From Eledone cirrhosa (taxonomy: Eukaryota), in assembly GCA_964016885.1 (NCBI GenBank), contig OZ024740.1:151528001-151592000 (forward strand): DNA of 64,000 nt. Reading direction: 5' to 3'. The position numbers were made by a program, and so were the translations under genes. Of the stretch, positions 7,619 through 61,142 are shown piece by piece; position 1 is the stretch's first letter; each line of letters begins with the position of its first letter. A model generated the notes under the pieces. That model searched no databases. It was given only the letters and a program-made list of their open reading frames with translations, and was not told the DNA's origin.

Positions 7619-8117
7619 ATATTCTAAATAGCAACTCACTATAATTCCGTATAGAATAACATTTATTAGTACCTCTTTCCCCTAATTATATGCTTTCATG
7701 CTTATTTTTGCCTTTTAATGTTTTAGCGTCCTTAGATTTATACGCTAATGACTAAAGGCAACAAGATACACAACCACACGTAATTGCATGAGTAAAAATA
7801 TACATCTATGTATGATATGGAAATATATTTATGTGTGTGTATATTTGTGTATATATATATATATATATATATATATATATATGTATGTATGTATATATGT
7901 TTATGTATGTGTATATGTGTAATTATGTATATGCTTGTATATGTATGTGTGTATGTGTATATATATATATGTATGTGTATATATATATATGTAAATGTGT
8001 ATACGTATGTATATATATATATGTGTATATATATATATATATATAAAGAAAAAGAGAGGAAATCTAAAATGCAACTGGAGTCTTATTTTTTTTTTAAATA
8101 TATATATTTATTTGGTT

Positions 8118-8155
8118 CCTTTACCGGTTTCGCAGTTCTTCTGCTTTTCAAAAGG
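8118..8155 (-). ncRNA. minimal type I hammerhead ribozyme, U3-A8 variant (mirror copy)
   Basis: Exact reverse complement of 8224-8261. Confidence 0.7.
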
Positions 8156-8223
8156 TGAGTTGAGATGGAGGGTCTGTGGTTTTTCTCACGTGAGAAAAAC
8201 CACAGACCCTCCATCTCAACTCA

Positions 8224-8261
8224 CCTTTTGAAAAGCAGAAGAACTGCGAAACCGGTAAAGG
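8224..8261 (+). ncRNA. minimal type I hammerhead ribozyme, U3-A8 variant
   Basis: cctt-TTGAAAA-gcag aagaa ctgc-GAAA-ccgg-TA-aagg: stems I and II pair, stem III is palindromic, GUA cleavage triplet. Confidence 0.72.
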
Positions 8262-9399
8262 AACCAAATAAATATATATATTTTTTTTAAAAATAAGACT
8301 CCAGTTGCATTTTAGATTTCATCTCTTTTTATTTATACTTTCACTCGTGTAGGACACCTCGGTTATTTTTCATTTTGTAAAAAAAAACTCACTTTCTAAT
8401 ATATATATATATGCGTGTGTGTGTGTGTATATGTGAGTATAGGTGTATGAATGTTTATATATGAGTATGTGCACATGTTATAGAGGTGTGTACATATACT
8501 CACACAAGTTAATATATATATATATGTGTATGTCTGTGTGTGTGTGTATGTGTGTTGTATATATATATATCTGTGTATATGTGTATGTATATATGTATGT
8601 ATGTGTGAGTGTGTATATATATATATATATGTGTGTGTGTGTGTGTGTATATGTATATGTATATATGGGGGTATAGATGTGTATGTATGGATATATATAT
8701 GTATGGAGATATATATATATATATGATTATATGCATGCGTGTGGATGTGTATTTAGGTTTGCATCTATTTGTACGTATGTATATTTTGGCTAGATATCAA
8801 TATAACTGTACCTCTCTCTATATGTGGTGTGAATATATGCACTTTGTAGACTATGAAATGTATGTGTTTTAACTATACCAACATCTGAGTTTGATTGTTT
8901 ATGCATAAACATACTTAGTAATATTTTAGAGCGTATAATATGTTATATTATACTAAGTGCAATTTACCACACCGTACTATATTGTGTTGGTTAAGTTGTA
9001 TATTATCGTATTACTATATCTGATTATCTTATTATAATTTTCATCTTTTAATATACTATCATTCCTAGCCATAACATTATTTTATATTCACCTTAAGACT
9101 CAATACAACACTAATCACCATTTATTTTGACATTCCTTTTAAATTCACTAAACAAGATACATTCAACTATCAGTTTGACAATCCCCTTCCTTCCTAATAG
9201 ATTTTTATGCCATTTCTACTAACACCCTTCAACCATTCCTTTCAAAGGATCATGACCCCAACTAAAGTGTAGTACTTTTCATCTTAACACCATATGAAAA
9301 AAACAATTTGATTCGTTAGTTCTTCAACTACCTCCAAATAAGGATATGATACTAACATGCTACTAATTCTGAGTAAAATTATTATTGAATCAAATTATT

Positions 9400-9535
9400 A
9401 TTGCTTTTGAAAACAGCTGGTGATATGCATGTAAGTAAATATTCTCTCTATCTGATAGTTTGTAAACTTACATAGATCAATAACTGAGTATAGATATAAT
9501 GTATTATCACCATCTAGAAACGATCGTAAAGCAGT
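9400..9535 (+). ncRNA. hammerhead ribozyme, U3-A8 variant with long stem II, probably in the 3' region of the 6.2-7.6 kb PLE
   Basis: attgctt-TTGAAAA-c agctggtgatatgcat...atgtattatcaccatct a-GAAA-cgatcg-TA-aagcagt. Confidence 0.62.
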
Positions 9536-9753
9536 GAAGTATATCTCTAATGACTTGATTTTTTATTTCATTATTTTAACTTATATCATGACTCTGTTTT
9601 CCTTTTAATGTTTTATTGTTTTCTGAGATTTATCTTAACCTACAACATTTTCAACATATGGATTACATCGAGTTCTTCGTGCAGAATAGACCCCACAACT
9701 TACAGTGGATACACCTCTGTGTATATATATATATATATATATATATATATATA

Positions 9754-10082
9754 TACAATATATTAACAAATGGAAACTATATTTATAAAACCATATTTAT
9801 TTCGTTATACATATTTCAAGGGCCACCAAGGCAAACTATGGTGCGCATTCATCGGATAAAATATAATATAGGTTAGTTTTATAAATAAATATTGACATAC
9901 CCTGAAAAGTTGCAACCATTCTGGTTGGAATCAGGTTATGACAATATTTATTTATAAAACTAACCTATATTATATTTTATCTGATGAAAGCGCACCATAG
10001 TTTGCCTTGGTAGCCCTGGAAATATGTATAATGAAATAAATATGGTTTTATAAATATAGTTTCCATTTATTAATATATTGTA
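9754..10082. repeat. fold-back element with ~150-bp arms next to (TA)n
   Basis: 9754-9905 is the reverse complement of 9931-10082 with few mismatches. Confidence 0.85.
9975..10036 (+). ncRNA. partly decayed hammerhead ribozyme (mirror copy in the left arm)
   Basis: ttttat-CTGATGA-aagcgcacca..tggtagccctg-GAAA-tatgta-TA-atgaaa; stem II imperfect. Confidence 0.55.
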
Positions 10083-58235: not shown

Positions 58236-58355
58236 ATAGGAACCAGTAAGACCCCGACAGCTGAGCTCAAGCCGTTTCGACGGCTAATTCCGGACGTCCA
58301 GAATTAGCCGTCGAAACGGCTTGAGCTCAGCTGTCGGGGTCTTACTGGTTCCTAT
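58236..58355. repeat. near-perfect GC-rich fold-back (~55-bp arms) in an insertion between (TA)n tracts
   Basis: ataggaaccagtaagacccc..ggctaattc is inverted around cggacgtcca. Confidence 0.9.
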
Positions 58356-58570
58356 ATATATATATATATATATATATATATATATATATATATATATATG
58401 TATATATGAATATATATATATATATATACACACACATATATATATATATATAGGGGAGGGGAGATCGGCCGTCGAGGAAACAACACCACGGGTACGGCCG
58501 GCCTCCATGTTCATGAAAAGAAAATTTTGTTCGGGCAAATCATTGGATTTTTCCAAATTTATAGGCTTTG

Positions 58571-58628
58571 TCGTCTGAAGAGCTCGGGGTATCATAACTG
58601 ATAGTCACCAGTGAAATATGTATAACGG
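58571..58628 (+). ncRNA. hammerhead ribozyme in the short insertion 58452-58672
   Basis: tcgt-CTGAAGA-gct..tatca taac tgata..agt-GAAA-tatgta-TA-acgg. Confidence 0.6.
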
Positions 58629-58740
58629 AGTGTTAAATAAATCTGAATCAACTGAATATGGCCGTCGATCTTATATACATATATATATATATATATATAT
58701 ATATATATATATATATATATATATATATATATATATATAT

Positions 58741-59556
58741 ATAATACATTATAAAGAAAGAGGAAACATTAGATATAATTAATAAGATATACCATACCTA
58801 AATTTCTTCATTATCCTCGACTACGTAGTTTTGTGGCTTATTATGCAAAAACATTACATCACAGAGATGCAGTTTTTTTGTGAGGTTTGCCGACTTATCA
58901 AGAGGTTACCTCATTTAGAGTATCAAAACACGTCCGTAGGACGTGAGATAGAATCTCGAAAGGCGAAGGGTGACTCCGTCACGTGATACAGCGGTCAAGA
59001 AACAGAGCTAAGCCTCTCACAACCAAGAGAAAAATACCACAAAAGGCGGAGTGGGTATTTATGTCAAGGCCGTAGAAGAGTTGGCTAGGAGGGCGAGAAG
59101 TGTGATTAGTGTAAGCTTAACATCAGTCACTATACTTCAGTGGTTACTCTACCGTAGGGAGTTATAAACATTACAAAGAAATACACAGACACATGCCTAT
59201 ACATACATATACATGAATATACCCACATATATCCCTGAATTTGTGTGGTGCCAACCTTAACCGTTGCTGCTCTATGAATAATCGGGACAAAATAATCCGA
59301 ATGGATTAGAATGATTCAATATCAGAGCTATATAATACATTATAAAGAAAGAAGAAACATTAGATATAATTGTTTCTTCTTTCTTTATAATGTATTATAT
59401 AGCTCTGATATTGAATCAATCTAATTCATTCGGATTATTTTGTCCCGATTATTCATAGAGCAACAACTGTTAAGGTTGGCACCACACAAATTCAAGGATA
59501 AATGTGGGTATATTCATGTATATGTATGTATTCGCATGTGTCTGTGTATTTCTTTA
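58741..59556. mobile_element. ~590-bp unit with terminal repeat plus ~185-bp fold-back, in (TA)n
   Basis: ataatacattataaagaaaga.gaaacattagatataatt at 58741 and 59333; 59175-59359 is inverted at 59371-59556. Confidence 0.75.
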
Positions 59557-60262
59557 TATTGTATATATATATATATATATATAGTTGACCAGTCACTGTC
59601 AAAAATAAACACCGTACCTAATATATAATGCCATCGGCACCGGTTACAATATAACGGTATTTTATTTATATATCAACAAGTCCTTGCTATTGTGTGTGTA
59701 AAATGTCTTTAGTAGCGTTCGTCTCTTTAAATTCTGTGTGGGAAAAAATATTTTTTTCGATGAATGTAATCTGTATACTACAATGTTCGTGTTTACACAT
59801 AATTTAAATATTATCCTTCTAAATAAGTACTATTATGTCAAATATGTGCATCCCACTTTCTAGCAATATACCACTTTACCATACAACTTTACATTAAATG
59901 CTTGTATCAAAACACAGCTCTGTTTGCTCCTTGAAAATTGCTTGTATTTGGTGGATCTTTTAAGTAACTCAATATTTCTATCTATTTTTCCTGGCGAGAT
60001 GGGGATTTATGCTTGAGTGCTATTGAAAATATTTATCATTAATTGTTGGACTGATTAATTAATAGATGATGTATCCTGGCACTACATTTATCCCCCACAG
60101 AAACCTTTGTAGAAATTTAAGATGGAATGTGAATAACAACTTTGGTTTTCCTTTTGAATTATATATATATATATATATATATGTGTGTGTGTGTGTGTGT
60201 GTATATATCTCTATCTCTCTCTCTCTCTCTCTCTCTCTCTCTCTCTATATATATATATATAT

Positions 60263-61142
60263 ATTGTTATACTTTGGCAGGGTCATGTTGCCAATAAGAA
60301 ACACACGCACCAGTGCGTGTGTTTCTTATTGGCAACATGACCCTCCCAAAGTATAACAATATCGGTATCAACACACGTTTTCAAATAAAGAATCTTGCTA
60401 AACAAATTCAGAAACGATATATATATATATTGTTATACTTTGGGAGGGTCATGTTGCCAATAAGAAACACACACACCAATTGCTTTCACTTCAATTTAAT
60501 ATAAATTTATAAATTTCCGGTTGGTTGGTTGGTTCCACAACCAGATGGTTGTTTATAAATTGTCAAAGTTCTTTCGTCACACATTATGTGACCTCTTCAG
60601 TGACTGGGGATTCTTTTCTTTGTTTTTTGTGCCTCTCCTTTGTTCTGTCCTACGCCATCTTGTTTTTGTGTGTGTGTTGTGTGCTTAGTTTGCGCATGTG
60701 TTACATCCGGGTGTCTGTGTGTGTTTATATTCGTTTATTTATTTGTTTATTTACATGTTACTGGTTGGTTGTTCGTTCTATGTGCGTGTGTGTTTTCATT
60801 TTGTCCTTAATTGTAAGTTGTGATGTTGCTGTTCCATTCATTTTTTCTATTTAATTTTGGTTGTAATTCATTTATGTTTATTGCCTCTGTGATTTGTCTA
60901 AACATTGCGTCTTTTCTGTGTGTAGATTCTATTTTTATTTCTATGTTCTCTAATTTACCGTTATGTTCTATTTTAGCATGTTGGTAGAGTACAGATGATT
61001 CTTTACTATCTTGAAGGTCTCGCCAGTGTTCATTTATCCGTTCCCCTATACTACGAGATGTCTCACCTATATACACTATATTTTTATCTCTACATTGTGA
61101 AGAGGTACAATATAATGCTCGAACAGAAATTAGCCTTATCAA
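60263..61142 (-). mobile_element. 5'-truncated PLE of a second lineage: GIY-YIG end, pseudo-LTR and nested fold-back fragments
   Basis: VYIGETSRSIGERINEH..HAKIEH..RQITEAINI..LNRKNEW; 3' UTR 60430-60806; hairpin 60263-60360. Confidence 0.88.
60562..60604 (-). ncRNA. minimal hammerhead ribozyme in the pseudo-LTR
   Basis: gtca-CTGAAGA-g gtcacat aat gtgtgac-GAAA-gaac-TT-tgac. Confidence 0.68.

Follow-up and report, generated by a model that had tools for sequence, protein, structure and literature searches.

The window analyzed here is the whole 64,000-nucleotide (nt) stretch of Eledone cirrhosa DNA at positions 151,528,001 to 151,592,000 of contig OZ024740.1 (assembly GCA_964016885.1), and it carries numerous hammerhead ribozyme motifs that very probably belong to the 3' ends of Penelope-like elements (PLEs). 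An earlier examination without database searches (the sequence-only reading) had claimed more than 20 hidden hammerheads from many unrelated families in this window, and 22 of its 23 sites fit a type I hammerhead descriptor, while the remaining site (36661) is a decayed copy. The core boxes CUGANGA (or its U3-A8 variant), GAAA, and UH are present at the window sites in the type I order. In the following list, hammerheads are designated by a single position, element types are assigned by motifs, L numbers denote comparison loci, and features with arms on both strands are given without a strand.

6248 to 7682, plus strand: 5'-truncated Hydra-type PLE open reading frame (ORF), with a reverse transcriptase (RT) thumb, CxCX5C linker, and GIY-YIG, upstream of the 9407 hammerhead
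To about 9720, plus strand: long 3' untranslated region (UTR) of the 6248 to 7682 element, containing the 9407 hammerhead; the UTR is continuous in L141, and a 666-amino-acid ORF is present in L158
8046 to 8398: family A head-to-head insertion in (TA)n, with a short arm lacking a tail and a long arm with a tail of about 65 nt
8151 (minus) and 8228 (plus): family A hammerheads of this insertion, with a U3-A8 core and ACCGGT stem III; a Neptune-type ORF lies upstream in L155 to L157
9395 to 9540, plus strand: hammerhead with its core at 9407 (site 9400 of the sequence-only reading), U3-A8 core, ACGATCGT stem III (a perfect 8-nt palindrome), score of 21
9770 to 10066: inverted pair of the most abundant Hydra-type family; stem II of 9981 (plus) is damaged, and the decayed copy at 9794 to 9867 (minus) is newly found
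13230 to 13501: old family with relatives 79 to 87% identical; 13278 (minus) has U16.1 changed to C, with a partial inverted partner at 13488 (plus)
17822 to 18280, minus strand: family D 3' end with a tail; hammerhead 18075 (minus), with an imperfect AGAACT stem III and an extra nucleotide after A9
35134 to 37050, plus strand: 5'-truncated Hydra-type PLE, with a GIY-YIG remnant (35134 to 35524), 3' UTR, decayed hammerhead 36671, and an end at (TA)n
37285 to 37385, minus strand: hammerhead 37373 (minus), ACCGATTCGGT stem III, young high-copy family
38732 to 38883, minus strand: extra family with a U3-A8 core, a long intramolecular stem III, U16.1 changed in the window copy, and a repeat period of about 570 to 600 nt
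40219 to 40415: inverted pair 40303 (minus) and 40331 (plus), ACCTTAGGT stem III
40521 to 40725: inverted pair 40594 (minus, core damaged) and 40652 (plus), ACGT stem III
43017 to 43074, minus strand: decayed family D hammerhead, newly found with the motif library
48735 to 48792, plus strand: hammerhead 48747, ACATTAGTGT stem III
48938 to 49321: second family A head-to-head insertion, 49056 (minus) and 49140 (plus), with a center different from that of the first and one arm tailed
50855 to 52369: putative retrozyme with a noncoding tandem unit of about 560 nt, ACTAATTAGT stem III
52794 to 53007, minus strand: family K 3' end; hammerhead 52886 (minus), ATGCGCAT, C·U mismatch, 49-nt inverted arm; a stop-free ORF is present in L174
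53635 to 58111, minus strand: near-full-length Hydra-type PLE, with pseudo-long terminal repeats (pLTRs) at 57608 to 58111 and 53635 to 54137 that are 96% identical and an end at (TA)n
58239 to 58352: palindrome truncated inside a hammerhead, with the first core box lost, so that the inversion point can fall within the ribozyme motif
58560 to 58640, plus strand: hammerhead 58575, Hydra-type design, ATATGTAT, C·C mismatch, weak stems
58814 to 58913, minus strand: decayed U3-A8 hammerhead, newly found, ACTACGTAGT, G12 lost
60265 to 61124, minus strand: family D copy, with a GIY-YIG remnant (60852 to 61124) directly upstream of hammerhead 60600

A strict type I descriptor gave 9 matches in the window, compared with means of 0.07 to 0.18 in three sets of 100 dinucleotide shuffles and 0 in the reversed sequence. 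A scored descriptor, in which stem II may span up to 140 nt, gave 23 matches at a score of ≥11 (mean of 1.4 and maximum of 4 in 40 block shuffles of the window) and 19 at ≥13 (mean of 0.15 and maximum of 2), so the comparison with shuffled sequence that had been proposed for these sites returned a far lower rate in the shuffles. The sites of the sequence-only reading account for 22 of the 23 matches at ≥11, and the other, at 4969, is probably due to chance. Descriptors with stem II limited to 80 to 90 nt miss the 9407 hammerhead, in which stem II is about 100 nt long and has a C·U mismatch at pair 4. The four family A sites and 9407 have a U3-A8 core instead of the CTGA[N]GA core described earlier. 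By inspection, 7 of the 23 copies are damaged (9981, 13278, 36671, 40594, 49140, 51119, and 58575), and three have an altered core base (13278, 40594, and 51119). Site 36661 (hammerhead 36671) scores 9.0, has a perfect ACAATTGT palindrome, and matches library copies at 75%; it is a decayed member of a real family. Comparison of the window with a library of 268 motifs from other loci added at least 5 decayed or truncated copies (the one at 53484 by eye) and one family (38732 to 38883). A CCGANGA core (U4 to C) occurs in more than one copy of some families (L085, L041, L052, and L169) and may be a natural variant rather than decay.

None of the Rfam hammerhead families matched the window at the gathering score, and no hammerhead family is among the matches listed at an E value of ≤1 (150 of 208), where the microRNA-type matches fall on hairpins and microsatellites and are spurious. 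The Rfam part of the proposed check was therefore negative, while the relaxed type I descriptor does find the sites, and the motifs lie outside the curated Rfam hammerhead models. A strict scan for permuted (type SGC) hammerheads, with blocks in the S-G-C order, found none above the shuffles in the window and 59 sampled stretches, though those with rebuilt stems II may escape it.

The motif is abundant throughout the 3.0-Gb genome. In a random sample of 59 evenly chosen 10-kb stretches (589,800 bases), the scored descriptor at ≥13 gave 75 matches, against 3 to 6 in five shuffles, which extrapolates to about 360,000 motifs (bootstrap range, 250,000 to 480,000), or about 120 per Mb; a narrower first descriptor gave 59 matches (one duplicate), against 0 to 3, or about 290,000 genome-wide. 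Whole-genome pattern counts were 112,383 for the core boxes with an 8-nt purine-pyrimidine stem III (control, 3,817), 104,347 for a pattern requiring a mismatch at stem II pair 4, with a gap range slightly unlike that of the preceding pattern (control, 23), and 11,539 for exact matches to the family A motif of 30 nt (control, 0), which was found twice in the sample, predicting about 10,000. The motif load is at least 120,000 by direct count (at least about 40 per Mb) and likely about 360,000, or about 1 per 8 kb. The motif count follows the (TA)n count across the 59 samples (Spearman coefficient, 0.63). With 19 matches against a mean of 8.1 per 64 kb, the window is at about 2.3 times the genome level (P of about 0.012 by resampling, the window having been picked after the fact), and the six flanking 10-kb stretches contain only 6 motifs. 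The window is rich but not exceptional, and it is not a special locus.

These controls also bear on whether the matches are due to chance in DNA that is rich in AT and microsatellites. A low background does exist, namely, the 3 to 6 matches at ≥13 per 590-kb shuffled sample, and one repeat-borne false positive was met at 18762 to 18919; this candidate was rejected, as it forms the 3' portion of a repeat linked to (TACA)n, likely a long interspersed nuclear element (LINE), and its GAAA is not conserved. The excess over shuffles in the sample, the excess over controls of all three whole-genome patterns, and the covariation of the stems described below stand against chance, which is refuted by the controls for all but about 1 in 20 matches.

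Self-comparison of the window showed that the 23 sites collapse to 16 insertions of 14 families, because many sites are inverted or tandem partners; "more than 20" holds for motifs and not for separate items, many sites being two arms of one insertion. Every family that could be assigned is either a PLE end or a PLE-type retrozyme, and a single Hydra-type design is common to five of them, which contradicts the description of the families as unrelated. The stem sequences do differ between families as had been described: the stem III palindromes vary by family and stay self-complementary, with 39 of 75 in the random sample perfect and 61 of 75 within one pair, although the score rewards palindromes and the figure is partly circular. 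Stem III is predicted to form in cis or as a palindromic dimer.

The covariation check that had been proposed was made on motifs chosen solely by the sequence of the core and stem III, which avoids circularity, and 81 distinct copies formed 19 subfamilies. Pairs I.1 to I.4 of stem I are kept in 16, 16, 15, and 15 of the 19 subfamilies, and pairs II.2, II.3, II.6, and II.7 of stem II are kept in 16, 16, 15, and 17. The conserved positions show two to four pair types each, above partner shuffles, which indicates that stems I and II are likely to pair and covary across subfamilies. Pair II.4 is paired in only 1 of the 19 subfamilies; 13 have C·C there, and 3 have C·U. The same mismatch is found throughout the ACGATCGT and ATGATCAT groups and with either core type, and in a wider set of 28 clusters, which includes other designs and some chance matches, 16 have C·C or C·U and 6 are paired at II.4. 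Among the 26 published Hydra hammerhead rows in File S2 of PMC8557442, no C·Y mismatch at stem II pair 4 was seen by eye. Shared ancestry could explain the fixed mismatch, and a docking site is a guess. The C3-G8 and U3-A8 cores both occur within the ACGATCGT group, and the switch between them is a compensatory change known from Schistosoma.

Seven of the 14 families (A, D, 9981, 52886, 9407, 53730/57703, and 36671) are tied to a PLE ORF with an RT plus a C-terminal GIY-YIG upstream of the hammerhead. ORF remnants of this kind lie upstream of sites of the sequence-only reading in the window itself (6248 to 7682 for 9407, 35134 to 35524 for 36671, and 60852 to 61124 for 60600). The 9981, 52886, 9407, 53730/57703, and 36671 families have Hydra-type ORFs with DKT or NKT and CxCX5C, with DKT and CxCX5C read for 9981, 52886, and 9407 from L158, L167 to L169, and L173 to L175; Hydra ORFs also lie between inverted pairs of the 9981 family in L167 to L169 and L173. 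The ORF of family K in L174 is stop-free over 821 codons (800 amino acids from the Met) and has SDKTN, RLRW(T), and CNCRIKNKC, with the RWK-like motif only partly kept. The Hydra clade marks (DKT, an RWK-like motif, a CxCX5C linker, no CCHH, and a (TA)n target) are found in L174 and also in L158, L167, L169, L173, and the window ORFs, and by these motifs the carriers of the five families are assigned to the Hydra clade type. The family A ORF has an RT together with a C-terminal GIY-YIG, with DKG, a CX4CxxC linker, and CCHH (L155 to L157, the last three marks being tested on L157). In 12 of 20 family D loci, a same-strand C-terminal GIY-YIG lies upstream, and the linker and the cysteines and histidines, read from frameshifted copies, fit the Neptune/Nematis marks. 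Families A and D are thus assigned by motifs to Neptune/Nematis-type PLEs. The near-full-length window element at 53635 to 58111 has a frameshifted RT-GIY-YIG ORF (54840 to 57438) and a hammerhead in each pLTR (57703 and 53730), and a pLTR or partial tandem with a hammerhead in each repeat is also present in L186. A Hydra ORF beside family A in L104 was rejected as its parent and belongs to the neighboring family K element. In addition, a piece of about 55 nt that matches the 5' UTR of family K is isolated between (TA)n tracts in the window (53010 to 53070, minus strand) and in L104 (1726 to 1921), possibly as a tail-only insertion, and a family D-related element at 53240 to 53604 (minus strand) has a family D 3' end with the decayed hammerhead at 53484.

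PLE ORF segments number 14 in the random sample and take up 20.5 of its 590 kb, and motifs outnumber ORFs by about 5 to 1. The motifs are mostly noncoding, as had been proposed, but mainly as 5'-truncated copies of coding PLEs and not as a separate class. An alternative is that most motifs are nonautonomous retrozymes moving as small circular RNAs, with the ORF-bearing PLEs only as helpers. Family J (51119, 51707, and 52270) has the expected form, since its tandem unit of 558 to 563 nt has one type I hammerhead per unit and no ORF was found in 20 loci. Its window hammerheads 51707 (plus) and 52270 (plus) are 563 nt apart, with an inverted arm at 51119 (minus, core damaged), and an array of about 90 kb with units on both strands lies on C2 (G000:C2:312.58-312.67 Mb); family J is classified from these features as a non-LTR retrozyme. 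A 311-nt tandem hammerhead family in L071, the 38732 family, which repeats at about 570 nt, and three families without an ORF link (37373, 48747, and 13278) also speak for this alternative. However, the most abundant classes (9981, 52886, 53730, A, D, and 9407) directly represent 3' ends of coding PLEs, and retrozymes themselves are reported as PLE derivatives (bioRxiv 10.64898/2026.07.22.740005). The retrozyme explanation fits a minority of families and is unlikely for the bulk. Several PLE families of the Hydra and Neptune/Nematis types and at least one noncoding tandem retrozyme have been amplified in this genome, some recently. In L209 (G000:C23:19253819-19254421), the inverted arm of one insertion consists of about nine 65-nt hammerhead copies of the 40652 family in head-to-tail order, a minimal tandem that may come from RT slippage or a tiny circular template.

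The insertions share a common anatomy. Motifs lie 40 to 300 nt from PLE 3' ends, just upstream of (TA)n, and the sampled motifs have (TA)6 or longer within 300 nt downstream in 60 of 71 cases and upstream in 26 of 71, compared with 17% downstream of random positions. The proposal of a large and diverse mobilome of ribozyme motifs tied to (TA)n is borne out by this association. Of 66 sampled motifs, 22 have an inverted copy upstream, and 1 has such a copy downstream; the inverted 5'-truncated copy and the tail at one end are as expected for PLEs. In family A, nine different centers occur among the 16 palindromic loci shown, and the spacing of the arms ranges from 38 to 4571 nt; therefore, each inversion was likely made at insertion. 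One arm of a family A pair ends at an internal TA-rich site, and the other continues through the tail of about 65 nt. Among family A pairs not selected for the tail, 24 of 26 have one tail, 1 has none, and 1 has two; 13 tail-selected pairs, 12 of them one-tailed, were set aside. Under an independent 50:50 choice, the probability of 24 of 26 is about 5e-6, with two loci that may be one duplicated segment. All family D pairs have one tail (6 of 6, one locus counted twice), and in the long copies examined, which were retrieved with a query that included the tail, the body-carrying arm is the tailed one. The one-ended tail of PLE insertions has been described qualitatively (PMC8557442). The near-absolute one-tail rule makes the integration model set out below testable, and it looks new.

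Some miniature inverted-repeat transposable elements (MITEs) have ends in (TA)n. The palindromic units could be MITE or foldback DNA transposons that contain a hammerhead by chance, or assembly artifacts, since they also end in (TA)n and the best 40 matches to a palindromic family A query are all on both strands. Such a query itself selects palindromes, and with a one-arm query, many copies continue into the 3' UTR and ORF or end without inversion, so family A as a MITE with a fixed center was dropped. The centers and spacing of the units vary, the arms are unequal, and those of older pairs differ by 8 to 19%, a divergence that a sequencing artifact would not give. This explanation is very improbable.

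Palindromes without a hammerhead match also occur in the window, at 37556 to 37688, 39918 to 40045, 48268 to 48399, 59223 to 59507, 62213 to 62331, 62868 to 62980, and 14777 to 14818, possibly as PLE insertions truncated 3' of the ribozyme or as other foldback repeats. PLE 3' UTRs contain (TA)n, (TG)n, and (CA)n microsatellites of their own (window 7800 to 8700 and 54300 to 54670; L094, L106, and L141), into which other PLEs insert, giving nested stacks such as the family A insertion at 8046 inside the 9407 element.

In the mechanism that we propose, the PLE protein would cut both strands of an AT-rich target, and reverse transcription would start at two internal RNA sites downstream of the hammerhead, as suggested by the in vitro system for which two start sites within the RNA were described and in which both target strands were extended (PMC11167929). 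The two target ends would be primed from different sites, and the two cDNAs would join head to head at a variable point; starting at the distal site would give the tailed arm, and starting at the proximal site would give the tail-less inverted arm, the pattern that the insertions display. Copying starts immediately 3' of the hammerhead, so the motif is retained even in short truncated copies and outnumbers the ORF. The covariation between families suggests that selection acts on the ribozyme in source elements, and most genomic copies may be decaying passengers. In palindromic insertions, a long hairpin formed by read-through RNA would conceal the ribozyme; the predicted read-through transcript of the 8046 to 8398 palindrome folds as one hairpin at -229 kcal/mol, and the palindromic copies are likely silent as ribozymes, being locked in such a hairpin.

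We conclude, with a probability of roughly 0.88, that the motifs are type I hammerheads of PLE 3' ends, mostly left as 5'-truncated copies, likely by target-primed reverse transcription into (TA)n, and predicted to cleave mainly as dimers via the palindromic stem III. Several observations weigh against this conclusion. A same-strand PLE ORF lies within 2.5 kb upstream of only 9 of the 75 random-sample motifs; truncation would predict such a low number, which is no proof for the remaining motifs. No upstream ORF was found in 15 loci each for the 37373, 48747, and 13278 families, and ORF hints for 40331 (L034) and 40652 (L208) come from single loci, with 58575 left out of the search. Pairs I.5, I.6, II.1, and II.5 are not above partner shuffles at P < 0.05, and the subfamilies are related, so the shuffle P values overstate independence. 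The stem III self-duplex of family D, in which this stem is weak, is predicted to be unfavorable (+1.4 kcal/mol), and the ATAT-type stems are weak (-2 to -3 kcal/mol). Furthermore, cleavage by minimal PLE hammerheads was poor even for dimers in published work (PMC4209133), and one PLE hammerhead depended on protein and was not necessary for in vitro insertion (PMC11167929).

Much of this is already known in kind, including minimal PLE pLTR hammerheads, inverted pairs, one-ended tails, (TA)n targeting, retrozymes, and an octopus Hydra family. The metazoan PLE hammerheads described by Cervera and de la Pena in 2014 (PMC4209133) share with those of E. cirrhosa the type I topology, the short stem I, the palindromic stem III for dimers, the U3-A8 core variant, and, in some families, the extra nucleotide after A9. 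They also occur mostly as single motifs from truncated PLEs, with opposite-strand pairs 100 to 700 bp apart and many families per genome. Unlike those motifs, many families here lack the G10.1-C11.1 pair, and they have palindromes of 8 to 12 nt, stems II of up to about 115 nt, and the fixed C·Y mismatch. The minimal-motif counts of that study were about 2,000 plus about 1,300 for Schistosoma, about 4,000 for Latimeria, and about 9,000 for Xenopus, whereas one E. cirrhosa family alone has 11,539 exact cores, a comparison that is not strict because the descriptors differ. The largest published count found, 126,247 motifs in the 28.2-Gb axolotl genome, or about 4.5 per Mb (PMC7229834; bioRxiv 10.64898/2026.07.22.740005), gives E. 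cirrhosa a density about 10- to 25-fold higher, which is indicative only, as the descriptors differ here as well. A literature search found no paper on such a density or on the stem II mismatch, but Lunse et al., known via the review PMC6765202, may show similar variants, and the supplements of PMC4209133 and PMC7229834 may add counts; the main text of a 2026 paper on Octopus vulgaris repeats has no mention of hammerhead or ribozyme. The motif load, the dominant Hydra-type design with its fixed stem II mismatch, and the stems II of up to about 115 nt look new.

The carrier elements likewise resemble known PLEs. The C-terminal GIY-YIG, DKT, and CxCX5C are shared with the Hydra clade, and DKG, CX2-5CxxC, and CCHH are shared with Neptune/Nematis, as described by Craig et al. 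in 2021 (PMC8557442), together with (TA)n targets, 5' truncation, the inverted 5' copy, the tail at one end, and the hammerhead near the 3' end. In that study, Hydra comprises a few families from aquatic invertebrates, one of them listed from Octopus bimaculoides, while here it is the source of more than 100,000 motifs, and the tails are about 55 to 65 nt rather than 30 to 40 nt. The Poseidon PAc in vitro system of Frangieh et al. (2024, PMC11167929) has in common with these insertions the cutting and extension of both target strands, the AT-rich targets, and two internal start sites defining the tail; its hammerhead is protein assisted. That system showed no difference in start sites between top and bottom strands and left the inverted pairs unexplained, whereas here the arms of one insertion would almost always use different sites. 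Family J agrees with the non-LTR retrozymes (PMC7229834; bioRxiv 10.64898/2026.07.22.740005) in being a PLE-related noncoding tandem whose units measure a few hundred nt and each contain a single type I hammerhead; such elements are only a minority of the E. cirrhosa families.

The window also contains other repeats. A near-full-length LINE (28683 to 34051, plus strand) that is GC rich and has few stops encodes an APE endonuclease and RT (Pfam PF03372 and PF00078), and a 71-nt tandem array (27760 to 28558) lies upstream of it, with a matching piece at 34291 to 34405. A very common repeat, found in many random samples and likely a LINE 3' end, terminates in (TACA)n, not (TA)n (18264 to 19284, 50395 to 50800, 63049 to 63411, 2597 to 2931, and 20580 to 20693). 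A repeat of about 200 nt resembling a short interspersed nuclear element has seven window copies (3375 to 3575, 20126 to 20192, 21230 to 21435, 22789 to 22932, 26352 to 26413, 46167 to 46371, and 61446 to 61633).

Taken jointly, these results permit a tentative wider reading, which we hold to be possible but short of an even chance: that this is the highest hammerhead density yet described, that the fixed C·C or C·U mismatch of the Hydra-type design is functional (as docking for stem I or the PLE protein, or as a brake), that one PLE complex primes both cut (TA)n ends from two RNA sites, and that the genome holds about 300,000 latent self-cutters. What PLE hammerheads do and how PLE inverted insertions arise have both been named as open questions (PMC8557442). 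Tens of thousands of young insertions from many families are available in this genome, along with a sharp rule of one tail per pair and the stop-free Hydra-type ORF of L174 for an in vitro system. This whole putative ribozyme load of an animal genome, with about one motif in every 8 kb, is missed by Rfam, and it raises the question of how introns tolerate it. If the wider reading is true, two-site priming would explain the long-known inverted structure of Penelope elements with a tail on one end, and the host transcriptome would be molded both by cleavage at ribozymes and by double-stranded RNA, given about 300,000 latent self-cutters of which one-third lie in hairpins.

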